Positions 4,497-21,291 of a stretch of DNA of 64,000 nt are shown here, piece after piece; within the stretch, counting starts at the first letter, position 1; every line of letters begins with the position of its first letter. This DNA comes from an uncultured Gammaproteobacteria bacterium (GTDB lineage Bacteria > Pseudomonadota > Gammaproteobacteria > DRLM01). The stretch spans positions 608,001 through 672,000 of the forward strand of contig CAVSNY010000007.1 in NCBI GenBank assembly GCA_963729605.1, read 5' to 3'. Made by a program: the position numbers and the translations under genes. The notes under the pieces were generated by a model. That model was not told the origin of the DNA. It did not search any database and was given only the letters and a program-made list of their open reading frames with translations.

Positions 4497-6362
4497 GTCT
4501 TAATCCCTTCTTCATCAGGTCATGCATTCAAACCGCCGTGACGGTGACGGCCGAGCTGTTGATCTGTCTTAATCCCTTCTTCATCAGGTCATGCATTCAA
4601 ACATGTGGGAAGGATGTTATGCCTGCATCCATCCAGGTCTTAATCCCTTCTTCATCAGGTCATGCATTCAAACACTTATATCGAAACCACCGTGACCGGC
4701 GCCGTGGGTCTTAATCCCTTCTTCATCAGGTCATGCATTCAAACCCTTCGCGTCCACCCTTCACACCCTTTGCGTCCGTCTTAATCCCTTCTTCATCAGG
4801 TCATGCATTCAAACGGCCGAGTGACTACGGATCATATTCCGAGCTTCTGTCTTAATCCCTTCTTCATCAGGTCATGCATTCAAACGGCGTAACCGTGGAC
4901 ACGTCCGGGTTCCTGGCGTCTTAATCCCTTCTTCATCAGGTCATGCATTCAAACCCAGCCTTGAGATTTGACATGGGGATGGGGAGGGGGTCTTAATCCC
5001 TTCTTCATCAGGTCATGCATTCAAACCCCATAGGCGCGTCGGGCATGTCCCGCTGGTGTCTTAATCCCTTCTTCATCAGGTCATGCATTCAAACAAGCGA
5101 TCGGGCCAATTCACATTGACACGCTGGGTCTTAATCCCTTCTTCATCAGGTCATGCATTCAAACCTCGGCGAAGAAGGTCATCGAGGCCGTGTCCCATGT
5201 CTTAATCCCTTCTTCATCAGGTCATGCATTCAAACCGCCATCAATGACAACATCTTTGCCCAGATCAAAGTCTTAATCCCTTCTTCATCAGGTCATGCAT
5301 TCAAACATTAGGATGTTGTCGGCCACAGCGCCACGCGTGAGTCTTAATCCCTTCTTCATCAGGTCATGCATTCAAACACCTCGGCGGAGTAGATGCCAGC
5401 GACAATTACACGTCTTAATCCCTTCTTCATCAGGTCATGCATTCAAACTTATCCATCGTGCGGGCGGCCCGCGTGTCTTATAGTCTTAATCCCTTCTTCA
5501 TCAGGTCATGCATTCAAACGAGCCGCTCGCCATCTTCTACCAGGAGTCGGTGTCTTAATCCCTTCTTCATCAGGTCATGCATTCAAACCGTTCAGTAATT
5601 TTTCAGGATCGACCGGCCGCTGGTCTTAATCCCTTCTTCATCAGGTCATGCATTCAAACCGCTACGCCATCTTGAATGCCGCGGCCGTGGTCCGTCTTAA
5701 TCCCTTCTTCATCAGGTCATGCATTCAAACCTCGCCACCGCGCTGGATAACACCTCGGTGTATGAGTGTCTTAATCCCTTCTTCATCAGGTCATGCATTC
5801 AAACGGCGCTGGTATGTATGCGCCCGCCGACTCAGACGTCTTAATCCCTTCTTCATCAGGTCATGCATTCAAACCGAAAAGGGCGGACCACTAGACCCAG
5901 CAGACGTCTTAATCCCTTCTTCATCAGGTCATGCATTCAAACATACCTGAAGAACTGGTTGGCGAGTTTATGATTGTCTTAATCCCTTCTTCATCAGGTC
6001 ATGCATTCAAACCGAGGCATCGTCGTTAATGATGTGCGGCGCATGGTCTTAATCCCTTCTTCATCAGGTCATGCATTCAAACGCCCCGGCCATGAGGCAT
6101 CGTGAGGCGTAGGGTCTTAATCCCTTCTTCATCAGGTCATGCATTCAAACGGCCTGCGCAGAGTCTATGCAAACCGCGACGGACGTCTTAATCCCTTCTT
6201 CATCAGGTCATGCATTCAAACCTATGGCATGAATTCTCGCACGCACTCCGACGCGTCTTAATCCCTTCTTCATCAGGTCATGCATTCAAACCGAGGAACA
6301 TCACGAAGCTTGCGGCGCAGGTTACGTCTTAATCCCTTCTTCATCAGGTCATGCATTCAAAC
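4497..6362 (-). CRISPR. CRISPR array: 27 identical 37-bp repeats, 26 spacers of 31-37 bp
   Basis: The + strand repeat GTCTTAATCCCTTCTTCATCAGGTCATGCATTCAAAC was counted from 4497-4533 to 6326-6362. The transcribed form is GTTTGAATGCATGACCTGATGAAGAAGGGATTAAGAC. Orientation is inferred from the AT-rich leader next to cas2 and the ATTAAGAC 3' end. Confidence 0.99.
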
Positions 6363-6484
6363 CGCTCGTACTTTAAAAAATATCATAAACATTGAGTTGG
6401 AAAATGCGTTGCCAATTTTTTCGCCACTCTGGAAATCGCCTCACGGAGCAATCCCTCCTAGAGATTAGACTCCAGAAATGGAAT
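6363..6484 (-). promoter_or_regulatory. CRISPR leader
   Basis: AT-rich non-coding stretch between the cas2 stop and the first repeat. Confidence 0.75.
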
Positions 6485-6817
6485 CTACTCCTTCTTAGGT
6501 GTCGCTGAAAAGAGTCCCGTCTCTATTTCATCACCAAAAAACAGTGACGCCTCTTCGGGAAGGACGCGTTTGCCGATCATCGTTATATGTGCCGGCTGGG
6601 GCACGGCGTAGATGCGTACGTCGTCGCAAGCGGGTTCGATGAATTGTTCAAGTTCTTGGGCTAATTTTCCGATTCGCGCGGGACTCGCCTGTGTGCCAAA
6701 AACTGAATACTGTAGAGGCACTGCGCATCCTTTGAGAAAACGGTGTACCCGCGCTAAACGGCGGTGATCGCGGATGTCATAGGCAATCAACCAAGCGCGC
6801 TTCTGATTTAGCGCCAT
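6485..6817 (-). CDS. cas2: CRISPR-associated Cas2 (copy b)
   Basis: WLIAYDIRDHRRLARV...LQYSVF...DDVRIY. Confidence 0.92.
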   Translation of the reverse strand: MALNQKRAWLIAYDIRDHRRLARVHRFLKGCAVPLQYSVFGTQASPARIGKLAQELEQFIEPACDDVRIYAVPQPAHITMIGKRVLPEEASLFFGDEIETGLFSATPKKE

Positions 6818-7623
6818 TCGTGCAATCTCCTGGCGAGCAATTGCGCCAGTCTGCCTAGCGCGCTGGCGATAAGCGCATCCAGTTTGGCATCATAGATATG
6901 CAGCAAGTGCAGCGCGGTATGCTCGTCCAGGTGGGCTCGCTCGTGCATTTCGCCCGAATCGAGATGCAAGGCGAGCCGTAGTACTGCGGCCATATCCTCC
7001 GCCAGCTTTAATGGAACGCCGTCGAAACCCCAATGGACGGCTTGGAGTCCGCGTTGATCCAGATGTTCGATAGCCAGTGCAAGCAGCCAGCCGTTGGAAA
7101 TGGTCTCCGTTTCCATTTTTTCCTGGCAATAGACGTGCCGGCGAACCAATTCGCGCCATGAGTGGGATTCCACAACACCGCGCTCCGCACTTTGCCGCCA
7201 TTTCACCAAATGGCGCATGCGCTCGGCGCGTAGGAAGGTTGCCCACTGCTCTTGCCAGTCGGGCCGATCAAGGAACTCATCCAGCAGCCGGGCCAGGTCA
7301 GTCTGTGTTTGTCCGGTCGGTTGAAGGTAGCCATACGGCGTTCCCTCTCGATCAATAAACACGATGGAGACACGCTGTTTCAGGCACAACTGCAAGGCGG
7401 ACGCGGTCCAGGTACAGCGGCCGCTGACAATCACGCGTGAGACACGGGCAATCGGGTAAGCGCCGCTGGCGCGACCGGCCATGGTAATCATGAGGGCGGC
7501 TCCTTTGGTGTCAGCGATCATGTCTGTCCCGCTGAGATAGAGTGGGCGCGCACCCGGCATGCCGGGACGATTGGCAATATATTTAGGCGAATGCGAAATG
7601 GCCGGTCCGCTCATGCCATTCAT
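6808..7623 (-). CDS. Degenerate Cas1 paralog, probably catalytically inactive
   Basis: Cas1-like N-terminal beta domain (PLYLSG...YPIARVSRVIVSG...SALQLCLKQRVSIVFIDREG). The C-terminal RGLQAVHWG...LAEDM echoes Cas1 AGLDPLVGFYH...LACDL, but there is no GxEG motif and no in-register His. Its start overlaps the cas1 stop (TAATG). Confidence 0.7.
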   Translation of the reverse strand: MNGMSGPAISHSPKYIANRPGMPGARPLYLSGTDMIADTKGAALMITMAGRASGAYPIARVSRVIVSGRCTWTASALQLCLKQRVSIVFIDREGTPYGYLQPTGQTQTDLARLLDEFLDRPDWQEQWATFLRAERMRHLVKWRQSAERGVVESHSWRELVRRHVYCQEKMETETISNGWLLALAIEHLDQRGLQAVHWGFDGVPLKLAEDMAAVLRLALHLDSGEMHERAHLDEHTALHLLHIYDAKLDALIASALGRLAQLLARRLHEWR

Positions 7624-8609
7624 TAAAACATTTCCTCATCCCCGGGCGAGTCCAGCCATGATGCACCTCGCCCGCGCAGGCGGCGTGCCAATGCCGCGCA
7701 TTGTTGCCGCAACCAGCGGCGAATAGGTACGGCGAATTCATCATAGGCTTGATAGAAGTGCGTCCGCCCCGCCTTCTGCAGCAGGCAAGCCGCGCGATCA
7801 TGGGCAAAGTGCTCCGTGCGCAGAACGCGTCCGCGGAACAAATTCCACACCCAGGCATCCAGCTTCGGGCGCAGAGGTTCGATCAAATCGCAGGCAAGTG
7901 ATTCCCGACCGTGAGCGGGTCGATGATAGAACCCCACCAGGGGATCCAGCCCGGCGATATGGCTCGCGTGTACCGCATCGAAGTGCAACAGGGTATATCC
8001 GAGAGAAAGCACCGCGTTGACGGGATCGCGTGGCGGGCGGCGGTTGCGGCCCGTGAAGCCGAGTCCTTCTGGAAACAAGGCGCATAGGGCGCGAAAATAG
8101 GCCGCCGCCGCGCTTCCTTCGAGACCGCGTGTGCGGGCGGTTACCCCATCCTCCGATTCGGTGAGCGTGCGGATGATGGGATCGATGGTGCCTAGGGCAT
8201 CGGTGAGCGGCTTGCGGCAATCGGGACGTTGAAGCATGGCTTGCCGGAGCAGCTTTGCCTGGGCCCGGGTCTTGGCCAAGACGAGACGCTGCGACCAGTC
8301 ATTACAAAAATCCTCATCCAGCGCCATCTGGCATTGCGCAAGACGCACCGCCGCTTCGTTGTGGGCGGGGCCCAACACCAGGGCGAGGCGCCGGCTGTGA
8401 CGAGCGCTCAGCAGCAGGGTCGTTACTCCCGCTTCGCCAAGGCGGGTGAGCACGCCGGTTTCGATACGGATGGCCGCGCCCTGCAACACTACCCGGTCGA
8501 GCAAGGCGATGGGAATCGTGCCGCTGCGCGCGCCTGATTGGTACAGGGCCAGCGCCGAGCCATCGGCCCTTAACTCCAAATCCGAACGGTCAAGTACCAA
8601 CGTCGCCAT
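7623..8609 (-). CDS. cas1: CRISPR-associated integrase Cas1
   Basis: RGLEGSAAAAYF, RNRRPPRDPVNAVLSLGY, GLDPLVGFYH, SLACDLIEP (catalytic E/H/D present); ATG at 8609 after GAGG. Confidence 0.96.
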   Translation of the reverse strand: MATLVLDRSDLELRADGSALALYQSGARSGTIPIALLDRVVLQGAAIRIETGVLTRLGEAGVTTLLLSARHSRRLALVLGPAHNEAAVRLAQCQMALDEDFCNDWSQRLVLAKTRAQAKLLRQAMLQRPDCRKPLTDALGTIDPIIRTLTESEDGVTARTRGLEGSAAAAYFRALCALFPEGLGFTGRNRRPPRDPVNAVLSLGYTLLHFDAVHASHIAGLDPLVGFYHRPAHGRESLACDLIEPLRPKLDAWVWNLFRGRVLRTEHFAHDRAACLLQKAGRTHFYQAYDEFAVPIRRWLRQQCAALARRLRGRGASWLDSPGDEEMF

Positions 8610-8616
8610 GATGACC

Positions 8617-8901
8617 TCACCCAAAGTAAAAATACGGGGGATCGACCGGCGGTACCGCGCACCCCAGGGCATAGGTACGGGCACTCGGGTCGAGTCGCAG
8701 CAACATGAATCGGTCTTCTTGCTCGTCGAGGATCAGCGCCATGTTGTGCAGTAATTCATTTCGTTCCGCCGGCGAGAGAAAACATTCATGCACCGACTTT
8801 TGCCCGCCGGTAGCATAACCGCGCACGAGGGCGAGCGCCGCGGCCAAACGCCTGGGAGCGGCTACATCGTAGGCCGCGAGATAGAAGTCACGTTCGCTCA
8901 T
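8617..8901 (-). CDS. cas2: CRISPR-associated Cas2 (copy a)
   Basis: YLAAYDVAAPRRL...GGQKSVHECFL. Confidence 0.9.
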   Translation of the reverse strand: MSERDFYLAAYDVAAPRRLAAALALVRGYATGGQKSVHECFLSPAERNELLHNMALILDEQEDRFMLLRLDPSARTYALGCAVPPVDPPYFYFG

Positions 8902-8982
8902 GGGGGTCAGGGGCTTCCTGTGTTTGTCCTAGCTCAATCGGTGAACGCGATCATGCGCTAATCCACTCGTGCTGTAAGAAGT

Positions 8983-8993
8983 GGCAAGCTTGC
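8983..8993. promoter_or_regulatory. GGCAAGCTTGC box 1, upstream of the cas2-cas1 module
   Basis: Exact 11-mer with palindromic core GCAAGCTTGC; one of four copies, each upstream of a cas gene. Confidence 0.6.
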
Positions 8994-9060
8994 GATAGGA
9001 AGAAGAATGGCGATGAAAAATTGGAATGCGGTGCCCGGCGCGTCGGAGGGACGGTATACC

Positions 9061-9694: not shown

Positions 9695-10828
9695 TCAAGG
9701 TTTAATCCAGTTTTTTAATTTCTCATCAAGCCGACCAAGATCGGCGCCGCAAACCGGGACAATGCCCAAGGCCTTGGCCAATCGCTTCTCCGCATCCCCT
9801 AATGATCGGTAACTCGCCAATAACCCTCGGGCGCCCAATCCGCCCACCCGGCGGCAAATTTCCGCGAGCTTGAACAGTGTATCGTTGGCTTTCGTCGAAC
9901 CTTCCTTGTCCATACGCGCCGTCTTACACTCGATCATGAATAGGCGATTGCGCGCCATGAAGGCGACGTCGAGTTCGTTCTTCACCCCCGAGCTATCCAG
10001 CACGACCAGATTAGCCGCCTTATCGCGGATCGCGAGTTCACCGGAAATGTCGGCGACTGTCCTGAAGACATATTGTTCCAGCCAGCCGCCCTTAGTGAAT
10101 GCGCGATCGGCCTCGCTGGCGAAGCACAGCGTGTTATCTTTCATTTCCAAAACACCCGCTTCGCTGAACTGGCGCAGCAGGGCTTCCAGGCCGCGGCTGT
10201 CCATGTGCTGTTCGGAAAGCGTGACATGCAACCGGTTCTTGTCTTCGGCCTCTTGTGCCAGCCAGTTGAGTTGGCCGAGCGGTTGTTGCAGGCTGCCGAC
10301 TTGAGTGATCAGGGTGCGCAGTAGATCATCGTGGCGCCTTTCAGACTGTGGGTGCCGAATACCTTCTTGCAACGTGAACCCATACCCGCGCAGATAATGA
10401 CGAAAACGCAATTGTTCCGACAGCTTCTGTCGAGCAGGTTTATTGTCCAACCAGATGACTTCATCCGTATCGACATCGACGTAGAATACCGACCACCCCG
10501 CGGCCTGCGCGACCGTTTGCGCGGCGAGCGCCATAAGTTTTGTGCCGCCGGTGACATTGAGTGCGATACGCAGCTTATCCCGCACGCTGGCAACTTCAAG
10601 CAATGCCTGCTCCAATTTTGCGAAATCGTGTTCATCGTCCAGCAGCACGCGGGTGGTCTTGACGCTGGCTTCTTTCAGTACGGATTCAAGGTCATCGGCA
10701 CGCGCCTGCATTTTTCCGCTGACCATCAGCACAACTTCGGTGGGCTTAAGCGCGGGATCGAGTGCCGCGAGCAGGTTTGGAGCGGCCTGAGCCGATACTA
10801 ATAGCACTTGGACATCGGCATTCAACAT
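9695..10828 (-). CDS. card1: Card1/Can2-like cOA-activated nuclease (CARF plus PD-(D/E)xK, DUF1887-like)
   Basis: LLVSAQAAPN and LNVTGGTKLM (CARF); GGWLE...NELDVAFMARNRLFMIECKT (nuclease). Confidence 0.85.
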   Translation of the reverse strand: MLNADVQVLLVSAQAAPNLLAALDPALKPTEVVLMVSGKMQARADDLESVLKEASVKTTRVLLDDEHDFAKLEQALLEVASVRDKLRIALNVTGGTKLMALAAQTVAQAAGWSVFYVDVDTDEVIWLDNKPARQKLSEQLRFRHYLRGYGFTLQEGIRHPQSERRHDDLLRTLITQVGSLQQPLGQLNWLAQEAEDKNRLHVTLSEQHMDSRGLEALLRQFSEAGVLEMKDNTLCFASEADRAFTKGGWLEQYVFRTVADISGELAIRDKAANLVVLDSSGVKNELDVAFMARNRLFMIECKTARMDKEGSTKANDTLFKLAEICRRVGGLGARGLLASYRSLGDAEKRLAKALGIVPVCGADLGRLDEKLKNWIKP

Positions 10829-11130
10829 GAAATTTTCTCCGTCCTATATTCCTCCACCCGCGCCCCGTAGCGGCGCATCGCCTCCGCCGTCAACTCGATG
10901 CCGCGCGCGTCCGGCGGCAAATCCAATGACAGGTGCAGATACCGCGCGCCGCGCGCGCAGACCTCGGCGGCAAGATTCACCGGCAGCGAACCGATCACCA
11001 CATCACCCCTGTCGACCTCTGAAACAGTAAGGTGAGCCACGAGTTTGTCGACGGTAATATTTTGCGAAACAGCCCACTCCACAGCGCCGGGGTGGCGGGA
11101 AACAAAGAAGACAGTCAGGAGCGCCCCCAT
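10822..11130 (-). CDS. csx16: CRISPR-associated Csx16 (putative ring nuclease)
   Basis: FVSRHPGAVEW...GDVVIGSLPVNLAAEVCARGARYLHLSLDLP. Confidence 0.88.
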   Translation of the reverse strand: MGALLTVFFVSRHPGAVEWAVSQNITVDKLVAHLTVSEVDRGDVVIGSLPVNLAAEVCARGARYLHLSLDLPPDARGIELTAEAMRRYGARVEEYRTEKISC

Positions 11131-11283: not shown

Positions 11284-11316
11284 AAGAGCCACTTTTGTAT
11301 CATGAGGAATTTCACC

Positions 11317-11532: not shown

Positions 11533-11981
11533 GAGTCTTTCCCGATACCAACATCCTGGTCAGCGCAATGGTCACCCGTGGACTGTGCGAGGATCTGTTG
11601 CGTCTGCTGGTGCAAGGCCATCTGCGTGGACAGATGGAGCTTTTGATTGGCGCATCGGTCATGGATGAGCTGGAGCGTATTCTCCAGGACAAGCTGGGGG
11701 CAGACCGCGAAACCCTGGTGTTGGCGCGGGCCTTGCTCGCCGAAGGATTGAAAGTTCCGCATGGCGAACATCCCGCAACATCCATCGTCCCCGATCCGGA
11801 TGATATTCCTGTCCTCGGTTGCGCGCTGGCCGCAAAGACGGACATTTTTGTCACCGGTGACAAGGCGCTGCTCAATCTGAAGGTTGTTGAGGGCATGGCC
11901 ATCCTGTCGCCAAGGCAGATGTGGGAACGGTTGAGCATCACGAGCAAGAAAAGTGATACGCCTGAGACATCACTGTTCTAA
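11529..11981 (+). CDS. PIN-domain (VapC-like) toxin
   Basis: MRVFPDTNILVSA...E...DPDDIPVLGCA...FVTGDKALL acidic PIN motifs. Confidence 0.88.
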   Translation: MRVFPDTNILVSAMVTRGLCEDLLRLLVQGHLRGQMELLIGASVMDELERILQDKLGADRETLVLARALLAEGLKVPHGEHPATSIVPDPDDIPVLGCALAAKTDIFVTGDKALLNLKVVEGMAILSPRQMWERLSITSKKSDTPETSLF

Positions 11982-13697
11982 CATTTCTAACCACGACCGG
12001 AATTCGACTTTACGTTCTTTTTTAGATGGCCAATCAGTCCAGTCTTTTATCGTCTCGCGCAGAAGTATAGCTGCCACGTTACGTGCCGCTTTGTCATTCC
12101 ATTCTAATGTTTGCTTGAAAAACTCAAGCCGCTTTTGATCGAAAGCACTTCCAGCCTGATAGCGCCCTTTCTGTTTTTGTACCAAATAAAATTCGCGGAA
12201 TACTTCGACTGCCTGCATTTCGGGAGTCAACGTAGCCAGCCGTGCCTGACGCCCGGCCTCTTCTCGTGCGAGGCGGGCTTCTTCTTCGGCGCGCAGCCGG
12301 ATTTTTTCTGCTTCCTCGCGACGTTTCACTTCAGCCCCGATACGCATCTGCTCGAACTTAACCTGCTTCTCGACAAGCTTCGCAGCTAAGGCGCGGGCGC
12401 TGGCCAAATGTGGCTCACAGGCTGCCTTTAGCTCAGGCCATTCTTGAATTGACGTATCCACAGGTTGCAGTTCTACCAGTAACCAACCAAAGGGCAACAG
12501 GTTGGTGGATTGATCTTTTATGTCGGCGGCGAGCCAGAGGGTTTTGGCGGACTCAGCATATTCTGGTTTCTCATCTTTACTCTTCATGATCTTGATGTCG
12601 CGTACGCCCCGCAGAGTGATGGAGTCTGCTCCGGAATGACGCCCTACACGCAACAGGAAAGCCTCGCCTCTTTGCACACTTGCCCGCGCGATAGTCATAA
12701 GCGCCCGCACAGCCTTGTCCCAAGCGGAATCAAGGTAACCCCGCTCTCGCATGAGTTTGTTTTCGGCCTCCAGAATAGGCATGTAGAAGGCGTTGCAAGC
12801 GCGTGCTATGTCTTCGATTTTAAAGCGCAGGTCGTTAGCCGGAAGCTGGCGCTGCCCTTTGTGGCTGGTTTCGGATAAGCCGTCTACGGATTGCACATTG
12901 ACTTGACCGGCAAAGGCGCGGTAACGCCAACCGGAGATGCATTCGAGAATTTGATAGAGTTCCTTGCTCTCGGCTTGGGATTTTCGGATGTTACCTTGCT
13001 TATCTTTTACCTCGTTCTTCTTGCGATTAACAGCAACGTGTATCTGGGCGGCGGGCAAACCGGACTCCTCATGCCACGCGGCATCGGAGAGTTGCGTCAG
13101 GCGCATCGGGTCGAGCTCAAACTTTCCTGCTTGGTACCGGAATAGGCGTTGTTGCAGTTCCAGGTTATTTTCATTGCGTGGTCTGCCTGTGCGACGATCT
13201 TCGACTTTCTGCAGGCCCATGCCATCATTCACTCCGTCCAACAATGCTGTTCGAATCGCTCCCTTGAGCGATGAACCATACAGCACGGGTAACCGGGTGA
13301 TAGGATTGTAGCTGGTGCGGTCAATCTCCATCCGGTTCAACACCTGCTTGCCGTCGGCTTCGCGGTTTACAGTCTGGCCGATCCGGCTGGCGTAAAGCTT
13401 TGCCACGCCGGACAGCACAGGGATACGGTTGGTTGCACAAGGCATGATCTGTTCGCGCCGGTCGTGGAAATAGCGCTGAACGGCCTTGATCATATCCGTA
13501 TCCGGCTTACGGTTAGCAATATCAAGTAACACCTTGCGGTCGCTGGCCGACAGCGCATCCACCACGGATCCGGTATCGAACTCGTACAGCACTCCATCCT
13601 CGATGACGTAGTTGGTGGGTTCGTAACTCTCGCCCGTGCCGATATGGATGGGCGACAAGGGGGTAATGAACATTCGGTAACTTTCAAATCTGCTCAT
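11970..13697 (-). CDS. csm5: Type III-A RAMP subunit Csm5 with C-terminal extension
   Basis: TPLSPIHIGTG, YGSSLKGAIRTA, LRVGRHSG, LPFGW. Confidence 0.88.
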   Translation of the reverse strand: MSRFESYRMFITPLSPIHIGTGESYEPTNYVIEDGVLYEFDTGSVVDALSASDRKVLLDIANRKPDTDMIKAVQRYFHDRREQIMPCATNRIPVLSGVAKLYASRIGQTVNREADGKQVLNRMEIDRTSYNPITRLPVLYGSSLKGAIRTALLDGVNDGMGLQKVEDRRTGRPRNENNLELQQRLFRYQAGKFELDPMRLTQLSDAAWHEESGLPAAQIHVAVNRKKNEVKDKQGNIRKSQAESKELYQILECISGWRYRAFAGQVNVQSVDGLSETSHKGQRQLPANDLRFKIEDIARACNAFYMPILEAENKLMRERGYLDSAWDKAVRALMTIARASVQRGEAFLLRVGRHSGADSITLRGVRDIKIMKSKDEKPEYAESAKTLWLAADIKDQSTNLLPFGWLLVELQPVDTSIQEWPELKAACEPHLASARALAAKLVEKQVKFEQMRIGAEVKRREEAEKIRLRAEEEARLAREEAGRQARLATLTPEMQAVEVFREFYLVQKQKGRYQAGSAFDQKRLEFFKQTLEWNDKAARNVAAILLRETIKDWTDWPSKKERKVEFRSWLEMLEQ

Positions 13698-14665
13698 GCG
13701 GCCTCCCTGTTTCCGGGTAGTGCAATCCCCACGACCGGGGCATAACCCTGATGCACCGTGCCGGGAATAGTTTTGGACAACCGGCCGTCTCCACCCAATC
13801 CCTTACCAGTGAACAATGCACACAGTTCAGTTCCGATCTGCGGCGTTAGCACGGCACCGGTATTGGCCAGCAGCACAGGGGTTTTGAAAGGACCGCCCTG
13901 ACCATGCACGCCGATATCGCCATGGCGGCCGAACCGGGTAAAGGGCTGGTAGAAACAACGATCCGCATGCCACAACAAACCTTGCGGTGCGCAGGGAGCC
14001 AGCGTCAACCAAGCGTCGGCGTGAGCTTGGTTGGGAAAACCGAAGGGCTCAAATTCTTTTATTTCAAACTTGCCCAAGCCGATGCTGGCGTCACGCCCAA
14101 AGCCGACCGCGCCGATGTCAGCGAGTAGTTCCCGCAACTCGTCGGCGGCGAGCCGGGATTCATCCAGTACTAGGTAGACATCAAGGACAATTTCCCGCAC
14201 GTCCTTGTCGCCAAACCAAAGCTGGTTCATAGCATAGGGCGCGAACTGACCTTCGCCCGTAGTGCCGGTGTTGCGGTTCAGAGTGTTGTGCGGTTGCGGG
14301 TGTTCGGCCGCCGCTCCGCTGGGAATAGCGCTGGACGACAGACAATGCTCCAGCCAGGCCTCGACTGGCGCATGGAACTGGTCGATCGGCATCCAGGAAC
14401 GTTTTTTGACTGCCTTGCGGTCGGCACCCTTCACTTCATCGAACCAATGACCGGGCAACACCGGTCGCGGCAGATATCCTGTGGGAAAGGCGTCGGAAAC
14501 AACGACAAATGGCCCGCCCTGACTGTAACCATCCAGCAGTTCAACAAGACGCGCCTCGCCATAGCGATTACGCACCGCCCAACACAATTGGCCAAATAGG
14601 GTGTCGCCCATAGGTTTGGTGCCGAAGGCCGATAACGGAGTGATGCGAGCACGATAAGAACGCAT
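13694..14665 (-). CDS. csm4: Type III-A RAMP subunit Csm4
   Basis: GDTLFGQLCW, VSDAFP, HNTLNR, GFGRDASIGLGKF. Confidence 0.9.
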   Translation of the reverse strand: MRSYRARITPLSAFGTKPMGDTLFGQLCWAVRNRYGEARLVELLDGYSQGGPFVVVSDAFPTGYLPRPVLPGHWFDEVKGADRKAVKKRSWMPIDQFHAPVEAWLEHCLSSSAIPSGAAAEHPQPHNTLNRNTGTTGEGQFAPYAMNQLWFGDKDVREIVLDVYLVLDESRLAADELRELLADIGAVGFGRDASIGLGKFEIKEFEPFGFPNQAHADAWLTLAPCAPQGLLWHADRCFYQPFTRFGRHGDIGVHGQGGPFKTPVLLANTGAVLTPQIGTELCALFTGKGLGGDGRLSKTIPGTVHQGYAPVVGIALPGNREAA

Positions 14666-14675
14666 GGTCGTCGCC

Positions 14676-15398
14676 TCAGGCTACCTGGGTGGTTTTAGAA
14701 AGTTGAATCGCGCCGAGTTCCGGCAACAAGTCCCGGTCCACCAGCATCAGATTCGCGAACTTCACCTTGCCATATCCGCGCGAACCGGAACCGCCCAAGC
14801 CGGTGAGTTCCATGAGCTTGAGGCCGCGTAAGACCGTGGATAACAAATCTTCGCCATCGTGTACGCGCAGAGTGAGATTGAACTCGAAGCGTGCGCCGGC
14901 CGGTACCCGCTCGGTGTTGCGCGGATGTACTGCCACGCCGCGGATGCGGTCGATCATATTCTCCATCTTGGTCTCGGTGAGCAACAGGTTACGACGGTTC
15001 ATTTCTTCTACCCAGGTCTTGTCCAAAGAGCAATCCCAGAAGGCTAGACGAGTTGGACCAATCTCCTTTACCAAGGAGTCCTCGGTTTTTGGGTTAGGCG
15101 CACCTCCGAATAGTTTGAGTATATTTTTTGCCTGCATTTCGCTTTGCATTCCTTTTTTGATGTCCAGGAATCCAAGCGGCTCACCTTTTTCATTGATAAT
15201 GCCCAATTCCCATTCCAGCAAGCTGCGAATCTTGCCCTTGATACTGGAGCCGGGGATATATGGTTCGAGCGTAAGCGGATGCTTGATGACCGGATTGTCG
15301 GTGCCGCCGATGTGCATTTCGTTGTTGCCGCTGCCGATATGCAGGCCGGTGACGAGTTCCAGGGTGCCGGTGAGTTTTTGGATGGCAGTGAGTTTCAT
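14676..15398 (-). CDS. csm3: Type III-A backbone endoribonuclease Csm3
   Basis: TGLHIG, IGGTDNPVIK (catalytic Asp), YIPGSSIKGKIRSLLE, LGGSGSRGYGKV. Confidence 0.95.
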   Translation of the reverse strand: MKLTAIQKLTGTLELVTGLHIGSGNNEMHIGGTDNPVIKHPLTLEPYIPGSSIKGKIRSLLEWELGIINEKGEPLGFLDIKKGMQSEMQAKNILKLFGGAPNPKTEDSLVKEIGPTRLAFWDCSLDKTWVEEMNRRNLLLTETKMENMIDRIRGVAVHPRNTERVPAGARFEFNLTLRVHDGEDLLSTVLRGLKLMELTGLGGSGSRGYGKVKFANLMLVDRDLLPELGAIQLSKTTQVA

Positions 15399-15413
15399 GT
15401 CTTTTCTCCAGAA

Positions 15414-15875
15414 TCAGTCGTTACCAGGGCGTTCCTGTTTATAGAAACCCATGAAGGCTTCCCAGAATAATTTGCAGGCGGTGAGAGTTTCAGGGTCTTT
15501 CACTTCGCCGAGAGTGTGCTGCAACAGGTTGACGAATGTACGGTCCACAAGCTTGCGACCCTCGGCATAGGCAGCCTTGGCGTTGATCATGCGAATGAAG
15601 GGCAGATATTCGTCGAATTTCTGTGGTTGCTGATTGAGGCGTCCCTCCCATGCAACGAGTTCGTCGTAGAAACGACGTAACTGAGTGGACTTGTTGCTCT
15701 GGTTATCACCACGCGAAACAGCTTGAGCGGCATTCTGTGCCTGTGTATTGAACAGTTCAGGATCAAGTGGCTTTGCCAGCTTGATCGCGTTGAACTGTGG
15801 TGCAGGCGTAGCACCTGCTTGACGTTGTTGGGTGCGCTGTCCCTGTGGTGGGCGTTGTTGGCGGTGGTCAGGCAT
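15414..15875 (-). CDS. csm2: Type III-A small subunit Csm2
   Basis: NKSTQLRRFYDEL...AKAAYAEGRK...FWEAFMGFYK; ATG at 15875 after GAGGAG. Confidence 0.92.
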   Translation of the reverse strand: MPDHRQQRPPQGQRTQQRQAGATPAPQFNAIKLAKPLDPELFNTQAQNAAQAVSRGDNQSNKSTQLRRFYDELVAWEGRLNQQPQKFDEYLPFIRMINAKAAYAEGRKLVDRTFVNLLQHTLGEVKDPETLTACKLFWEAFMGFYKQERPGND

Positions 15876-15886
15876 ATCTCGTCTCC

Positions 15887-18628
15887 TCAATCACGTCGTT
15901 GATACAGGTAAGTGAACAGGGCGATTTTGTAAGCTGCCCCATGTGCCTCAATGCCGAGTCCGGCGATTTCCGTTCCGAGTTCTGATTGCAGACGGCGGCG
16001 TTTCTCCTCAGTCTCTTGCCGATCCCCGGTGCTTTTGATTTTGGTTTCCACCATGCGACGTGTGCGATAAGCGAACTGCGAATGCCACAAGGCGTTTTCG
16101 GGACGCTGGCTGATCTTCCCGGCCATGTCTGTGTAACTAAGCAAACTGTAGAGGTAACCGGTGGATAAGGCGTGCTCGCCTGCCACCCGTGACAGTCCGT
16201 CCTCGCGGTTCATGAGATGATCGAATCTCTCCCACGCAACCGAATGATCGAACGCGCTGACCGCGTTTTTAGGCGGGGGTTGCCGGTTATCCGGGTTGTG
16301 TGTTTTGGCACTGTCCAGCGCCTTTTCCGCGAGACGCGCCAGTTGCCGGATAGGCAGGCCCGGTTTGGTCATGGAGAGTCCCGCGGAAAAGTGGATGTCC
16401 GGGTTCTCCGCCACGTAGCGTCTGAAATCGTCCTTCATGCGTTGGGCCAGCTTGATGGTCGAATGCCAGGGACCGATGAGAAAGAAATCGTCACCGCCCG
16501 CGAACACCGTGTAGGTGTTTGGGAATTCGCTTTTGCACAACCAAGGCAGATAAATGGCGAAGAAGGCATTGACCTGCCGGGACAGGCCGGCCATGCGGGC
16601 GAAGGTCGGGCGCTCCAGACCCTTTTCAAAAATCCGCCCCAGATTGTCTACGTCCCCCTTGAGGGTCATGAGAGCGGTGACCCCAATGTAGCGATCTCGA
16701 CCGTCGCTGGTTTTGAGTGCGTGACCTTCCTCGTCGAACAGTGGTTGCCGGTCGTCGCAGGCGAGGTGGTTGAGCGTCTTGATCTCATCTGGATGCGGCT
16801 CGAAGTCTTCCACGTTCTCGATGCCGTGGTACCGGTCGGCTTCCCAGGCATTCATTGCACCGAAACGCGGAACGTAGGCATTGATATGACGGCGCGCATA
16901 GCCGCCCCATAACGGAGTATCGAGACTCTCCGGCAGCGAGAAGTCCCACGCACGCAGCAGATTGCCGATGCGGGCTTCATTGCCGAACTTGCCGGTGTCT
17001 TCCTCGCTCTCAGTGAAGTTCACCCGGAAACCGAAGATGGGCAGCCTCAGGGTGTGATGATCGAGACCATCGCGCGTGATGAGGACGCGTTTCTGCGTAG
17101 CAAGCCACTTGCCGGTGTCAATCTGATCGGCGGCAAGCCTGCACATGCCATCCATTTCGGCCGGAGAGCGTCCATCGATCTTGCACTCGCCATGTTCAAA
17201 TCGGTCTAGAAAGCCCTTGAACACGGCTGGAGTAATTGCGCCGTCACAGAGGCTCAGGCGGGTAAGCTTGGTTTCCTCCAGTTGCTTGAACAATTGCGTG
17301 ATCAGATCGCGGAAAGGACTTTCACCCTCCTTGCCGTGGCGAAAATCATTGGCCCGAGCCGGCAGCCAGGCCAGACCGATGCCGGACTGTCCGTAGGTAT
17401 GCTCCAGGAACCAGATATCCAATTCTTTTTGCACGTCTCGGAGTTTGGCGATAGTGTCCGGGGTGTTGGGCGCGACGATGAGAAACTTGCCGGCGGCATT
17501 GACCACTTGACTGATGGCGGGCAACGCCAGCGCCTCCAACACTTTGAGGGCGGCCAGCTCGCTAAGCAGTGAAACGTAAAACGAGCGGCCACGCAGCAAT
17601 TTGGCGGCGCGCTTCTGGGTCTGCCCGCCCTCGGCGAAAATAAAGTCCTGGATACCGAAGAAATCACCCTGCACCAACAGGAATTTCTTTGTGTCCCAGG
17701 CGGCATCCGATTCCGGCGTACCCACCCGCTCGCGGTCCCACTGAGCACGCAGTTGTTGTTTGGTGCTTTGCGTATCGTGACCCTGGTCGGTGTGGTATCG
17801 CCACAGCGCGACGGCAAGCCCGGCCGTGGTCTTGGAGTGGTCGTAGAGCGAGACATCGGGCCGCACATTGCCACCGATGCCCGCTGTCGCCGAAGGAATC
17901 GCATGTGTGAATGTGAGCCAGAGACTATCAAAGTGGTCAAGCCAGAGCGGCAAACTTATCCTGTGACTGGCGGGAATAACTTTCAGGCCATCTAGAAACT
18001 GTTTCCACATATCCAAATAACGTGCCTGCGCGGCAACTTTGTCCTCGTTTTCGCAGGATTCCTTCTTGACAGGGAAGATGGCTTTAGGAGAGAGGGCCTT
18101 GAGCGGATAGCGCCAATTCTGCGCCTCCGGTCTGTCCTCCAGGCGGACATGTTCCAGCAACGTCCACTGTCGAGTGGTGTAGTGATTAAGTTTCTTTTGT
18201 TCATCATCCGGCGAGGCGTTGTAGGTCTCAAACTCCTCCCGCTCGAAACCCGATGCCAGGCGATCGGCCGTGGCAATGATCCATTGCAGAAAAGAATCCG
18301 GCCGATGATGGCGGGCAGCGGCGTTGATAATCGAGTCGTCGGCATTGCGTTCCCGCCACGGCGCAAAAGGTGTCATGTCGTTGCCGACGATGTCCGGAAG
18401 ATGTGCTTCCAGCAGGTCCATGCCAATGGCGGTGTAGGCGGCGTGGATATGTGTGCGGCGACCATTGTACTCAGGGCAGTACAGCAGTTCATTGATGGAC
18501 TGACGAGTATTACCATCGGTATCTTTCTCTTTCGCCTCCTGGATGCGCGCACGTTCAGCGAACTTGCCCAGGTCGTGCAAGTAAGCCGCCAGTGCCACGC
18601 GACAGGAAGCATTCATCTTTGGTGTCAT
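15887..18628 (-). CDS. cas10: Cas10/Csm1 (HD nuclease plus Palm cyclase)
   Basis: AYLHDLGKF (HD), DVSLYDHS, GDFFGIQDFIF, KGDVDNLG, VFAGGDDFFLIGPW (intact GGDD). Confidence 0.97.
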   Translation of the reverse strand: MTPKMNASCRVALAAYLHDLGKFAERARIQEAKEKDTDGNTRQSINELLYCPEYNGRRTHIHAAYTAIGMDLLEAHLPDIVGNDMTPFAPWRERNADDSIINAAARHHRPDSFLQWIIATADRLASGFEREEFETYNASPDDEQKKLNHYTTRQWTLLEHVRLEDRPEAQNWRYPLKALSPKAIFPVKKESCENEDKVAAQARYLDMWKQFLDGLKVIPASHRISLPLWLDHFDSLWLTFTHAIPSATAGIGGNVRPDVSLYDHSKTTAGLAVALWRYHTDQGHDTQSTKQQLRAQWDRERVGTPESDAAWDTKKFLLVQGDFFGIQDFIFAEGGQTQKRAAKLLRGRSFYVSLLSELAALKVLEALALPAISQVVNAAGKFLIVAPNTPDTIAKLRDVQKELDIWFLEHTYGQSGIGLAWLPARANDFRHGKEGESPFRDLITQLFKQLEETKLTRLSLCDGAITPAVFKGFLDRFEHGECKIDGRSPAEMDGMCRLAADQIDTGKWLATQKRVLITRDGLDHHTLRLPIFGFRVNFTESEEDTGKFGNEARIGNLLRAWDFSLPESLDTPLWGGYARRHINAYVPRFGAMNAWEADRYHGIENVEDFEPHPDEIKTLNHLACDDRQPLFDEEGHALKTSDGRDRYIGVTALMTLKGDVDNLGRIFEKGLERPTFARMAGLSRQVNAFFAIYLPWLCKSEFPNTYTVFAGGDDFFLIGPWHSTIKLAQRMKDDFRRYVAENPDIHFSAGLSMTKPGLPIRQLARLAEKALDSAKTHNPDNRQPPPKNAVSAFDHSVAWERFDHLMNREDGLSRVAGEHALSTGYLYSLLSYTDMAGKISQRPENALWHSQFAYRTRRMVETKIKSTGDRQETEEKRRRLQSELGTEIAGLGIEAHGAAYKIALFTYLYQRRD

Positions 18629-18680
18629 TGCATTTCCTCCCAATGCCGATTGTCATCTTTCCCCGCGCCGACTGCCGTTC

Positions 18681-18695
18681 CGGCAAGCTTGCGGC
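18681..18695. promoter_or_regulatory. GGCAAGCTTGC box 2, upstream of cas10
   Basis: CGGCAAGCTTGCGGC in the intergenic region, identical over 15 bp to box 3. Confidence 0.6.
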
Positions 18696-18725
18696 AGGCT
18701 GCCGCGCGTGACGCCGTTCGATGAT

Positions 18726-19868
18726 TCATAACCTTGGCTCCAGCGCCGCGAAGCGGATCGTCTCGGGCTCGAGTGTCAGCCGATAGCGGCGCGGGCGGGT
18801 GCCGCCGTCATCGATCAGGTAAGGTGCGGCCGCCGGACCCAGCGATTTCTTGAGTAGTTTTCGCAGCTTGCTCAGGTGCGACGAGAAGTATTCGCCGTCC
18901 ATGCCCTTTTTCAGGGCCCGTTCGGTGTGATCGCCGTCGGCCATATCGCCGACGATTCGGCGCAGTTCGTCCAAATACCACCGCGACCATTCGGTGTCGG
19001 GCACGTCTTTGGACGGTGCGGGTAACGCCGGCTCGTTACGCGAGGCGCGGTGCGCGAACACAGCCAGCAGTGCCAGTTCCGCCGGTGGCAAAGGGATGAT
19101 CTGATCCGCGGCGCGGATGCGCCGGTTCGCAAGGTCGAGCACCAGTTCCTTCGGTCCGAGCACCCGTTGGGCAGCGGCTACGCTGGCGCTGAAAGAGGTC
19201 GCGCCCTCGCGCAGCCGGTCGTCCAGGCCATGACGCATGCGCACGAAGGGGATCTCCGCCAACTCCACGATCGCATCCCGGCAATCGAGCGGACGCGGCT
19301 TGGTCTCGCGGGTCTGGATCACGCGCTGGTCACGGGTCGGGTAGTAGAACTCGGGGTGCGATTCGAAGGGTGCGGACACCAGTACATGCGACAGCCGGTC
19401 CTGCGGCCGACCGTAGAGTGACAACGCATAACCGAGATAATAGCCCATGGTCTTGCGGCCGCCGGCCAGCGAGACATGCATGGCCGTTTCCGGGTCGGCG
19501 GTCAGTTCGCGCACGATGTCCGCAATGAAATCGGCAACCCGTTCGTTGTTCGCCGGCGTGCGGATGTCGTCGAGCGGTTGGCCGTCGACATCGGTCACGA
19601 TGTGCAGGGTCGCGTCGTCGAAGCGCATCGCGGGCAGATCGTATTCGCGGCAGAGGAGATGGAACCAGCCCGGATCGTCAGACAGTAGATTCAGCCGCGC
19701 ATGCGCGGCGCCTTCGCCGGTGGTAATGACGTGGATCTCGGTGGGTATAAAGGCAACCCGTTTTTGAGCGGGTTTCACGGCCAAGGCATATAAAGTCTCC
19801 GTCACGATCTGCGGCGACAGGCCGGTGACGGCGAGCAGGATTCGTTTTGGATATTCGTATGGCTGCAT
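18726..19868 (-). CDS. NE0113-family CARF protein (ring-nuclease-like) fused to a C-terminal winged HTH
   Basis: KRILLAVTGLSPQIVTETLYAL, HVSLAGGRKTMGYY, DRLSHVLV, FESHPEFYYP; the C-terminal YFSSHLSKLRKLL...RRYRL resembles an OmpR-type wHTH; no HEPN RxxxxH seen. Confidence 0.82.
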   Translation of the reverse strand: MQPYEYPKRILLAVTGLSPQIVTETLYALAVKPAQKRVAFIPTEIHVITTGEGAAHARLNLLSDDPGWFHLLCREYDLPAMRFDDATLHIVTDVDGQPLDDIRTPANNERVADFIADIVRELTADPETAMHVSLAGGRKTMGYYLGYALSLYGRPQDRLSHVLVSAPFESHPEFYYPTRDQRVIQTRETKPRPLDCRDAIVELAEIPFVRMRHGLDDRLREGATSFSASVAAAQRVLGPKELVLDLANRRIRAADQIIPLPPAELALLAVFAHRASRNEPALPAPSKDVPDTEWSRWYLDELRRIVGDMADGDHTERALKKGMDGEYFSSHLSKLRKLLKKSLGPAAAPYLIDDGGTRPRRYRLTLEPETIRFAALEPRL

Positions 19869-19884
19869 ATTTTTCGCTGGTAGG

Positions 19885-20967
19885 TCAACCCGCCTGGCCT
19901 GATATGGGCTCGACGGCCCACCCCGAGGCATCGGTCATGGCGGGCACATCCGCCCCCGTTTGCTTCGGCAAGCTTGCGGCCGGCTCGAGCGTGTAGCGGC
20001 CTAATCCCATGCTGGTGCCCTTGCCGGCGTGCGTCCACTGACCGAGCCACAGATACGGCCAGAAGGCCGCCAACTCGCAGTCATCCAGCGATGCGGTTCC
20101 GGTCAATCCACCCATTTCCATGGTGGTCTGTTGACGGGTGCTGTAGCGCGTCCAGTCCTTCCAATGCAGTTCGGCCTTCGAAAAAGATACCGCGCGCGCT
20201 TGGTGGGTGAGGCCGGCGAAATCCGTCTCCAGCGGAGTGTCGGTATGAAAATAACTCAGCATGGAGATGCGCCTTAACAGGTTGCCGAACAGGTCGGCGA
20301 AGCGGAATTGGTCCGGCCCGACGTACTGCTCCGCGCGCCGCAGCCGCAGCGGGGTATGAAACCTCAGCCGCAGGCTTGAGGGCGCCGGCGGTGTTTCCAA
20401 TAATCGAGGCGCCTCCGCCGCCAATTCACTGCCCGGCCGGTAAATCTCCCGCCAGGCATCGGTCGTCGGATCGTCAGCCTGCTCGACGGCGATCAGGTCG
20501 AGCGGGGTGCGACCCGTGCCGAGGCCCTCGGCGCCTGCGCGCGCGAAGGCGTGAATCATGTAAGCCAGGGATTGGTTGGCGCGACCGAATAGCGTGAGGC
20601 CGAGGAGGTGTTCCGCGTCAGGGCCGATTTGCGGGGTCATGCCGTCTTCGAGTTCGATCAGGAACGGGTGCGGCGCGGCCGAATAACGCCGCATCTTGGC
20701 GGTCTCCGCGGGAGGCGGTGTTTCAAACAGATAAGGATAGGGACAGGACCGATAGAGCAAGCAGCCGCCGCAGGATTTCATGCGCGTGACGCAAACGGTG
20801 CGTTTGAGCGCATGGCCGAAGGCGCCACGCCAGGCCGAGCCGGCGTATTCGGGAAGCTTCGGTGTTCCCCGCGGCCTAAAGCGCAGGCGATAACGTGCCA
20901 GCGGAAGAACGGGTTTTACCCGCGATGAGGGTCCCGTGACGGTCTTATTGTTGTTGTGCCGGGACAC
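19885..20967 (-). CDS. cas6: crRNA-processing endoribonuclease Cas6
   Basis: YAGSAWRGAFG, CxxC...C insert, HPF, TPLRL, G-rich loop HAGKGTSMGLG. Confidence 0.92.
   Translation of the reverse strand: MSRHNNNKTVTGPSSRVKPVLPLARYRLRFRPRGTPKLPEYAGSAWRGAFGHALKRTVCVTRMKSCGGCLLYRSCPYPYLFETPPPAETAKMRRYSAAPHPFLIELEDGMTPQIGPDAEHLLGLTLFGRANQSLAYMIHAFARAGAEGLGTGRTPLDLIAVEQADDPTTDAWREIYRPGSELAAEAPRLLETPPAPSSLRLRFHTPLRLRRAEQYVGPDQFRFADLFGNLLRRISMLSYFHTDTPLETDFAGLTHQARAVSFSKAELHWKDWTRYSTRQQTTMEMGGLTGTASLDDCELAAFWPYLWLGQWTHAGKGTSMGLGRYTLEPAASLPKQTGADVPAMTDASGWAVEPISGQAG
19966..19980. promoter_or_regulatory. GGCAAGCTTGC box 3, in the cas6 3' tail upstream of the CARF-wHTH gene
   Basis: CGGCAAGCTTGCGGC; encodes AASLP just after the conserved Cas6 G-loop. 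Confidence 0.55.
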
Positions 20968-21037
20968 GGTTATTCAGCCTCCCTTGCTTATTTCAGATGA
21001 TCCTAGCTTAAATCCGGATGGAAGGCGAAGTCTCCGC

Positions 21038-21051
21038 CGGCAAGCTTGCCG
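21038..21051. promoter_or_regulatory. GGCAAGCTTGC box 4, upstream of cas6
   Basis: CGGCAAGCTTGCCG is a perfect 14-bp palindrome. Confidence 0.6.
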
Positions 21052-21291
21052 TCTGATTAGGAGGCGACAGCGGGGGTCATCTATTGATGTAGATGTGATG
21101 GCATCGCTTGAGGGCGGCGGCGCAATCGAAGTGTAACGATGCGGCGTCGAAAGAGCGGGGGATGTGTTCATGACGCTCTCGGTTACCGGATAGGGGTTCC
21201 ACGCCGCACCGCGGGCGCCAGTTCCCTACTGCCACCGGGCAGGCCGAGCGCGTAGAATGTCCCGTTTTGAAATCGCCAGGACTGATCTTCG

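Follow-up and report, generated by a model that had tools for sequence, protein, structure and literature searches.

A 380-aa protein encoded in a CRISPR-Cas locus of type III-A in an uncultured gammaproteobacterium is probably a homodimeric, one-component regulator of that locus, which would sense cyclic tetra-adenylate (cA4) with a CARF domain, act on promoters through a winged helix and probably reset itself, and which more likely activates transcription than represses it. Its gene lies at 18726-19868 on the minus strand of a 64,000-nucleotide stretch of DNA (GenBank assembly GCA_963729605.1, contig CAVSNY010000007.1, positions 608,001 to 672,000), called the window throughout, and the protein is called the regulator. 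An earlier note on this DNA had proposed a CARF-winged-helix factor acting at a palindromic box. All the computational tests that we ran agree with such a putative factor (fold, box position, -10 spacing and genome enrichment). The domain folds, the box statistics, the promoter geometry and the co-occurrence were obtained by computation and are reported below.

In the proposed mechanism, two CARF5-type domains would form a pocket for cyclic oligoadenylate (cOA) from Cas10, and the pocket would probably cleave this ligand slowly and so reset the switch. Two OmpR/PhoB-type winged helices would read the palindrome YSGCAAGCTTGCSR, placed about 46 bp upstream of the transcription start in promoters that have a -10 but no -35 element, and the bound dimer would recruit RNA polymerase. 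In the window the dimer would act on the promoters of cas6, of its own gene, of the cas10-csm operon and of cas2-cas1, downstream of which lies the array. Infection would thus lead to more effector complex, more of the adaptation gene products and more regulator, and cleavage of the ligand would end the pulse. We infer the DNA binding, the dimer geometry, the ligand, the sign of regulation and the timing. More tentatively, type III loci of this kind, a large family, would carry their own alarm amplifier and timer, switched by cA4, recruiting polymerase at -46 to promoters without a -35 element and often with leaderless products, self-inducing and cA4-cleaving. As a one-component, cOA-dependent activator of type III CRISPR genes, the regulator would then be the first of its kind.

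The regulator and its two domains

An alternative, longer frame of 401 aa begins at 19931 and overlaps cas6. The 380-aa form was taken as the gene product because homologues begin at the same position in the homologue consensus. The NE0113-type CARF domain named in the earlier note was recovered by TIGR02584 (cas_NE0113; E 1.1e-76, 257.5 bits where the curated cut-off is 80.65, with positions 1-209 of the 209 in the model covered) and by PF09623 (E 9e-48, 163.3 bits against a cut-off of 23), and the peptide SLAGGRKTM occupies residues 133-141. The PADLOC profile PDLC01904 ('CARF5--CARF'; E 4.3e-132, aligning residues 7-374 with positions 1-350 of its 351) placed the CARF in the CARF5 clade and not in Crn1. 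The reported lack of a nuclease motif also holds, since the regulator matched no nuclease family or domain in Pfam and NCBIfam scans. More than 6,900 full-length relatives of the regulator were returned by the search.

The full-length AlphaFold2 model had a mean predicted local distance difference test score (pLDDT) of 89.1 and a predicted template modelling score (pTM) of 0.73. In VIA superpositions the Rossmann-like CARF fold was closest to the CARF of Cad1 (Z 15.1, root-mean-square deviation (rmsd) 3.0 over 184 residues, 22-26% identity), followed by Sis0455 (Z 13.1), Sso2081 (Z 12.9), Csm6 (Z 11.7) and then Sis0811. Across 32 sequences motif II (G137-R138-K139) does not vary; it stands at the start of helix 139-152. 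In the homologue consensus the whole GGRKT motif is invariant, as are T15, G16, L17, P19 and Q20, while conservation of S18 reaches at least 90%. Strand 1 is followed by the loop T15-G16-L17-S18, with Leu in place of the motif I Thr, an equivalence drawn by secondary-structure position only. The ring-nuclease-competent CARF motifs described for Sso2081 are Gly-Thr-Ser after strand 1 and Gly-Arg-Lys atop helix 4 (PMC10018336). The CARF of Cad1 is reported to be a cA4 ring nuclease; TaqCad1, of the same CARF5 clade as the regulator, bound cA4 at ~13 nM and cleaved it, did not cleave cyclic hexa-adenylate (cA6), and required its motif II lysine (PMC12669630).

We consider cA4 the likely ligand of the regulator because the locus also encodes Card1/Can2, a CARF-TM protein and Csx16, which have been tied to cA4 (table in PMC9704534; PMC12409355). 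The invariant motif II, the TGLS loop at motif I and the Cad1 CARF as nearest fold relative make a cA4-degrading role plausible, and cA4 sensing with slow self-cleavage is a reasonable proposition. The presence of intrinsic ring-nuclease activity in the regulator is slightly favoured over its absence.

The C-terminus had been likened to OmpR-type DNA-binding domains, and the modelled fold bears this out. Modelled alone, the C-terminal 145 aa gave a pLDDT of 92.0 and a pTM of 0.88, with three short strands, three helices of which the third is long, and a terminal hairpin. VIA-align matched this domain to OmpR/PhoB DNA-binding domains at Z 9.0 to 6.8 with an rmsd of ~3 Å over 90-99 residues. The best match was BaeR (Z 9.0, rmsd 3.1, 99 residues), all 50 of the 50 entries listed belonged to the OmpR/PhoB family, and 29 of 782 chains had a Z of at least 8. 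The top rows of a Foldseek search were also of OmpR/PhoB type (best E 3.1e-3). A sequence search of solved structures with the single protein returned nothing at E <= 1, and Pfam on the C-terminal 145 aa gave no relevant match, with no Trans_reg_C up to E 10. A profile of 32 homologues found only the KdpE DNA-binding domain among solved structures, and weakly (E 0.8). Because Trans_reg_C was not matched and KdpE reached only E 0.8, the domain was filed as having the same fold and not as a member of the sequence family.

The box and its promoters

The exact 10-mer GCAAGCTTGC occurs at 8984-8993, 18683-18692, 19968-19977 and 21040-21049. The genome, of 3,475,565 bases, holds six exact copies, four of them within these 12.1 kb, and one copy of the reversed-pattern control. 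The flanks of 103 exact sites from the window and related loci showed a pyrimidine (Y) at -2 (C 66, T 36), G or C (S) at -1, S at +1 and a purine (R) at +2, and this symmetric Y-S...S-R consensus extends the site to the 14-mer YSGCAAGCTTGCSR. The 14-mer is present four times in the genome, in each case at this locus, and its control is absent. The four boxes that had been noted are therefore all the genomic 14-mers, and they stand upstream of cas6, the regulator gene, cas10 and cas2-cas1 (Table 1). As had been claimed, both the regulator gene and the next gene have a box upstream, the first lying within the cas6 coding sequence and the second before cas10. Inside csm2, a possible degenerate box with a CACACT hexamer ~110 nt ahead of csm3 might serve csm3-csm5 as an internal promoter.

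For the comparison with other loci one genome per species was scanned. A relative of the regulator was encoded in 583 stretches, of which the best 80 were kept as related loci; the carriers include Gamma- and Betaproteobacteria and three Acidobacteriota. In the 78 loci with at least 120 nt of sequence upstream of the regulator gene, the exact 10-mer was found within 250 nt upstream in 56, and with one mismatch in 9 more. Within 300 nt past the regulator stop it was exact in 14 of 73 loci and had one mismatch in 12 more, and elsewhere in the related loci there were 29 exact copies in 564,568 positions, some before other cas genes. Once the window and three more loci were included, 82 loci could be compared, and their best match upstream of the gene had 0, 1, 2, 3 and 4 mismatches in 57, 9, 8, 4 and 4 loci, against 0, 0.6, 8.1, 42.3 and 30.6 in composition-shuffled upstream regions. 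The box keeps its place ~90 nt ahead of the alignment start even where the upstream gene is not cas6, for example in Accumulibacter loci, and by these sequence comparisons it follows the regulator gene whatever the neighbours.

Plasmid-borne type III-B loci carry RCAAGCTTGY boxes as well, four in Allochromatium vinosum and five in A. tepidum. The outer position of the box is the main variable, which gives this form. The symmetric A...T form was seen in L055, in L067/L070 (two loci of one metagenome-assembled genome), in G001 and in A. vinosum, and half-sites that change together fit a symmetric dimer. In a quick tree, proteins of the A...T type fall outside the main clade of 66 rows, with 2 changes (1 of 500 shuffles was as low), and 5 of 6 variant-type proteins have Asn at position 336, in the long helix. 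We do not claim a clean specificity switch from outer G...C to A...T, as the A. tepidum locus mixes both forms and related sequences share labels; the pattern is a lead only. In the A. vinosum plasmid pALVIN01 (L096, 4600-8952), radical SAM, radical SAM/SPASM and EcsC-family genes lie between the cmr genes and the regulator gene, and two of these radical SAM/EcsC-type genes have boxes at their ends and may be regulon members.

Downstream of the box we searched for a -10-like hexamer, defined as A at position 2, T at position 6 and at least four of six matches. Among 100 sites the hexamer began 28 nt after the box at 47 and 29 nt after it at 19, while no other offset from 0 to 43 was used at more than 8; a hexamer at 27-30 nt was present in 72 sites. 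A hexamer 28-29 nt past the box puts the box centre near -46. When 74 promoters were re-aligned on the hexamer, A appeared at hexamer positions 4 and 5, which are outside the filter, and the seventh and eighth nucleotides after the hexamer were C (43/74) and A (40/74). The match to a -35 element was no better than in shuffled spacers among the 74 promoters, and an extended -10 was present in one. A sigma-70 consensus scan of 18500-21350 found no minus-strand site and no terminator, and the -10 elements were derived only by alignment on the box.

The start codon lay 5-8 nt past the hexamer in 16 of 37 regulator genes (L010, L031, L037, L040, L042, L046, L054, L059, L061, L064, L065, L071, L072, L074, L076 and L078). 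This spacing suggests that the regulator mRNAs are leaderless in those loci, and it lends independent support to the hexamers as real promoters. The first open reading frame (ORF) after 77 box/-10 pairs was the regulator gene in 37 cases, cas10 in 6, cas6 in 3, and csx16, csm2 and cas2 in one each; it was unlabelled in 21, and in 7 there was no ORF. A shared TPAFLG start was seen in 9 of the 20 unlabelled downstream ORFs listed. NCBIfam gave no match on 13 downstream ORFs. A RAMP family was matched in 4 of 9 unlabelled ORFs scanned (E <= 1e-4) and in one more at E 0.086, so the box also precedes Cmr-type operons. We consider it likely that the regulator binds the box and controls these promoters.

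Activation is fairly likely as the sign of this control, since the spacing from box to hexamer is fixed and the -35 element is missing. Activation by OmpR/PhoB domains often comes from sites that adjoin the -35 element or stand in its place. The same protein and box would also suit a repressor. The dimer would then occupy -53 to -40 in uninfected cells and keep the polymerase from making its contacts, cA4 would release it, and repression would return through ring-nuclease activity. One-component repressors that control their own genes from palindromic operators are a common kind, and Box 2 and the boxes in coding regions could serve as roadblocks. A basal complex is needed to produce cA4, which suits derepression. 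Type III expression is costly, and other CRISPR systems are described as repressed until infection (PMC12205988). Against a repressor, the nearly invariant distance of 28-29 nt without a -35 element is typical of activator-dependent promoters, whereas a repressor site usually covers part of the -35, the -10 or the start, and its position may vary. We regard repression as unlikely, though it deserves to be kept in view beside activation. Two other assignments of the box were rejected: as a sigma-54 site, the spacing by eye is GG-N7-GC rather than N10, and a right half acting as the -35 element would leave a 26-nt spacer before the -10.

The box could also be a hairpin, in RNA or DNA, that serves processing or termination, or a side effect of a conserved Ala-Ser-Leu (ASL) coding segment. 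Its core can pair, Box 1 folds to -8.6 kcal/mol (z -2.0), and where long ORFs read through the box the frame is Ala-Ser-Leu in 21 of 33 cases, so part of the conservation inside cas6 could be shared ancestry of the coding segment, which counts against an operator at those sites. The other three boxes of the window, however, fold like shuffles (z +0.26, +0.80 and -0.67), the flank pairs show no covariation beyond composition (first pair 44 observed against 47.2 expected), and the region 18500-21350 has no terminator-like site. Conservation of the 10-mer extends to intergenic DNA and to other frames, its synonymous positions are invariant, and the box is phased with -10 elements. A hairpin or a coding by-product is thus highly improbable, and a site read by the regulator remains the preferred interpretation.

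Box and regulator across genomes

Co-occurrence was examined in 201 genomes across the class, including the unpublished genome G141. The regulator gene was present in 22. These carriers held 54 14-mers (mean 2.45), with at least one in 19 of the 22, and the 179 non-carriers held 100 (mean 0.56), with at least one in 63; without G141 the non-carriers hold 97 boxes in 178 genomes. The reversed pattern was found 39 times in all 201 genomes. Thirty of the 54 carrier boxes lie within 30 kb of the gene on the same contig, and many of the others are in fragmented assemblies. Examples of boxes near the gene are 4 of 5 in G178, 3 of 3 in G200, 4 of 5 in G163, 3 of 4 in G103, 6 of 7 in G114 and 2 of 2 in G084. 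In the multi-box non-carriers the boxes are scattered in 4 of 5 genomes, and G195 has two on one contig. For nine boxes in three further non-carriers, cas homologues were absent within 3 kb, and so was a hexamer at 27-29 nt. The association of the winged-helix-fused CARF with the box, proposed earlier as a check, is thus observed in this sample, both in boxes per genome and in their clustering at the locus.

Equal occurrence of the box in loci lacking the protein had been named as the outcome that would speak against the idea, and this is largely not what was found. In 7 of 8 genomes with a type III system and no intact regulator there is no box near cas10. Four of them (G009, G055, G105 and G160) have Csm1, no regulator and no 14-mer in the genome. 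G104 has a broken remnant of the regulator adjoining cmr2, in two fragments with one internal TAA (G104:C20:3830-4489), and no 14-mer in its genome. In G062 and G064 boxes occur only far from cmr2. The exception is G195.

Several observations weigh against the proposed pairing of regulator and box. The cmr locus of G195 has two boxes, one with GACACT at 28 nt, and the regulator was not found in the assembly, which is 99% complete in 90 contigs; its contig, 11.7 kb long, stops within a Cad1-like gene 0.85 kb upstream of the box. G195 is the single possible counter-example among the eight type III genomes without an intact regulator. In non-carriers as a group the 14-mer is roughly three times as frequent as the reversed control. 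In two carriers with single-contig assemblies (G012 and G164) the only 14-mer is far from the gene, and a third carrier (G021) has none. Among the related loci, no box was found near the gene in L063/L066, L025, L056 and L079. In the window, Box 2 lacks a good -10 hexamer, being followed by CATGAC only, so that the regulator may be read mainly from the cas6 promoter there. The conserved bases span a compact 14 bp with half-site centres 7-8 bp apart, an uncommon spacing where two winged helices share one DNA face, and OmpR/PhoB domains usually bind direct repeats.

Some of these loci have further features. In G195 a Cad1-like adenosine deaminase gene (L095, G195:C6, 10927-11682, minus strand) occupies the usual place of the regulator, directly upstream of the box-bearing promoter of a RAMP gene, and an IS630-type transposase (DDE_3) lies at 1376-2440, within the cmr locus. 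Two carriers have a variant box beside the gene, ACAAGCTTGT in G001 and ACAACCTTGT in G082. In L056, a Methylococcaceae contig, four copies of another inverted repeat, GTGCGAA-N4-TTCGCAC, flank the regulator gene on both sides and could be another operator or a repeat element.

The regulator might instead be mainly a stand-alone ring nuclease whose C-terminal domain modulates the enzyme, with the box read by another factor or by the polymerase. The NCBIfam name is 'CRISPR-associated ring nuclease Csm6', and plasmid records use the same name. The motif II GRK and the motif I-like TGLS are conserved (motifs from PMC10018336), and the boxes of G195 occur with no detectable regulator. The homologous winged helix-turn-helix (wHTH) of Sis0811 has been proposed to be auto-inhibitory, down-regulating the enzyme and not binding DNA (PMC8643638), which also counts against a DNA-binding role here. 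On the other side, the C-terminal domain as modelled retains the OmpR/PhoB DNA-binding fold in full, with the long third helix and the Arg-rich wing, and its conservation equals that of the CARF domain in the best 120 homologues (97-100% coverage). The box tracks the regulator gene irrespective of neighbours, no other DNA-binding family was matched among the locus ORFs scanned with Pfam and NCBIfam, and the locus already has the ring nuclease Csx16 (activity: PMC12409355). We therefore regard a role as ring nuclease alone as improbable and retain the DNA-binding regulator.

Known systems and the locus

The regulator resembles Csa3 (Csa3a and Csa3b of Sulfolobales and some bacteria) in its architecture, with a winged helix placed after a CARF sensor. 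Csa3 is reported to bind cA4 and to control cas and adaptation genes from palindromes in promoters (PMC8844856, PMC8699464, PMC9704534). However, no Csa3 family model was among the regulator's matches, and the Csa3 structure 2wte superposed poorly on the regulator model (Z 9.0, rmsd 10.1). The regulator is thus not a Csa3 family member, though it may act in a similar way. It differs further in its CARF5 clade, its OmpR/PhoB-type domain, its occurrence in bacterial type III loci and its apparent control of the type III genes themselves. Csa3 is also listed as not cleaving cA4 (table in PMC9704534), while the regulator CARF has ring-nuclease-type motifs.

The Crn1-type proteins Sso1393 and Sis0811 share with the regulator a CARF and a C-terminal winged helix with no other effector domain, and the motif II Gly-Arg-Lys is the same (PMC10018336). 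Their CARF folds match that of the regulator less well than Cad1 does (Z 10.9 and 9.4 against 15.1), and their wHTH is MarR-like. For Crn1-type proteins with a wHTH a link between cA4 turnover and DNA binding has been speculated; the docking analysis in the same source questions the wHTH dimer arrangement of Sis0811, and no operator was noted there (PMC8643638). Cad1, a CARF5-adenosine deaminase, is the nearest CARF by fold and shares the PADLOC clade CARF5; unlike the regulator, its effector is a deaminase that forms hexamers, with no DNA-binding output. With OmpR/PhoB response regulators the regulator shares the three-stranded N-terminal sheet, the three helices and the C-terminal hairpin wing; unlike them it has no receiver domain, a presumed CARF dimer as cOA sensor, a compact inverted repeat as its putative site and a domain ~40 residues longer. 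CalpL-CalpT-CalpS is likewise described as a route from cA4 to transcription in type III systems, but works by protease release of an extracytoplasmic function (ECF) sigma factor.

The system had been called undescribed in the earlier note, and this stands in part. Makarova et al. predicted in 2014 that the Csa3 and NE0113 families, being without effector domains, are direct transcription regulators (PMC4012209), so the regulatory role of the NE0113 family had been foreseen. In the literature searched, which did not include the 2020 CARF classification and the supplements of PMC12669027, no prior description of the operator, the promoter architecture, the regulon or an OmpR-type CARF fusion was found, and the matches listed for the box motif were cloning primers, none of them on CRISPR. 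A 2022 review names Csa3 as the only characterised non-nuclease CARF effector, and no other cOA-responsive transcription factor is given as characterised in it (PMC9704534); a 2025 classification counts transcriptional regulators among cOA effectors (PMC12669027). A 2025 ring-nuclease survey left out proteins of more than 250 aa (PMC12409355), so the regulator family would have fallen outside its count. The sequence comparisons support the proposed regulator well, and the putative operator and regulon are newly defined here, within the known kind of cOA-responsive CARF-winged-helix regulators.

How type III systems set their own expression level is poorly understood, and the regulator family is large and annotated only as 'ring nuclease'. 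The box provides a sequence handle for mapping the regulon in genomes and, if our reading is true, the defined operator could locate the regulon in any genome. The operator makes it testable whether infection signalling feeds back on the expression of cas genes, adaptation genes and crRNA. Also testable are a timed pulse from sensing and ligand cleavage in one protein, and the reading of a compact palindrome by an OmpR-type domain. Cultured carriers are Allochromatium vinosum DSM 180, Thauera aromatica and Ectothiorhodospira species.

The order of genes on the minus strand is cas6, the regulator gene, cas10/csm1, csm2, csm3, csm4, a long csm5-like gene, a 218-aa ORF, csx16, a Card1/Can2-type CARF-nuclease gene, a small CARF protein gene, cas2, cas1, a second cas1-like gene, a second cas2 and the array. 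Thus Cas10/Csm1, Csm2-5, Cas6, an array and cOA-dependent accessory genes were all found, and the type III-A (Csm) locus is complete. Divergent ubiC- and ubiA-like genes lie on the far side of cas6. Table 1 gives the coordinates.

Table 1. Positions of the CRISPR-Cas genes, regulator domains, boxes and array in the window.
Feature	Positions	Strand	Evidence or remarks
cas6	19885..20967	-	PF10040 E 2.1e-20
Regulator gene, 380 aa + stop	18726..19868	-	CARF5/NE0113 domain fused to OmpR/PhoB-type winged helix
CARF domain, residues 1 to ~238	19155..19868	-	TIGR02584; motif I TGLS (15-18), motif II GRK (137-139)
Winged-helix domain, residues 240-374	18747..19151	-	Inserts relative to OmpR/PhoB; model pLDDT 92; VIA Z 9.0-6.8
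cas10/csm1	15887..18628	-	TIGR02578 E 2.2e-207; likely start ATG 18628
csm2, csm3, csm4 and long csm5-like gene	11970..15890	-
csx16	10822..11130	-	Signalling partner in the locus
Card1/Can2-type CARF-nuclease	9695..10828	-	Signalling partner in the locus
Small CARF8-TM protein, 204 aa	9061..9675	-	PADLOC profile 'CARF8--CARF_TM', full length, E 2.1e-73
cas2, cas1, second cas1-like gene, second cas2	6485..8901	-
CRISPR array, 27 repeats of 37 nt	4498..6364	- (orientation inferred)
Box 1 (14-mer), upstream of cas6	21038..21051		-10-like TAAGCT 21010-21005, 29 nt past the 10-mer
Box 2, inside the cas6 3' end, 100 nt upstream of the regulator ATG	19966..19979		Poor -10-like CATGAC 19939-19934
Box 3, between the regulator stop and cas10	18681..18694		GACAAT 18654-18649 (28 nt on), GGGAGG, ATG 18628
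Box 4, upstream of the cas2-cas1 module, array next in the same direction	8982..8995		CATGAT 8955-8950 (28 nt on)
Possible fifth, degenerate box GCAAGCTTGT inside csm2	15547..15556	-	One mismatch; CACACT 15518-15513, 28 nt on; by eye

The start of cas10 was placed at ATG 18628 because the start in the ORF list, TTG 18643, would fall in the promoter. The Csm5-like protein (11970-13697, minus strand) has 575 aa, and the NCBIfam Csm5 model, of 364 positions, was matched at 113-207 only. The 218-aa ORF (11115-11771, minus strand), between the csm5-like gene and csx16, had no match in Pfam, NCBIfam or PADLOC. The 204-aa CARF8 protein may be a small membrane-associated CARF effector, possibly Cam1-like, and a homologue of it adjoins the regulator gene in G021 (L084). 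The adaptation genes form tandem pairs, with two cas2 and two cas1-type genes. In the Cas1 model (PF01867) only positions 1-111 of 283, its first third, are matched by the second Cas1 (6808-7623, 271 aa). The array is presumably transcribed from the minus strand, as judged by its repeat-end motif. Outside the CRISPR locus, a perfect 37-nt direct repeat occurs at 34330-34366 and 34401-34437, 71 nt apart.

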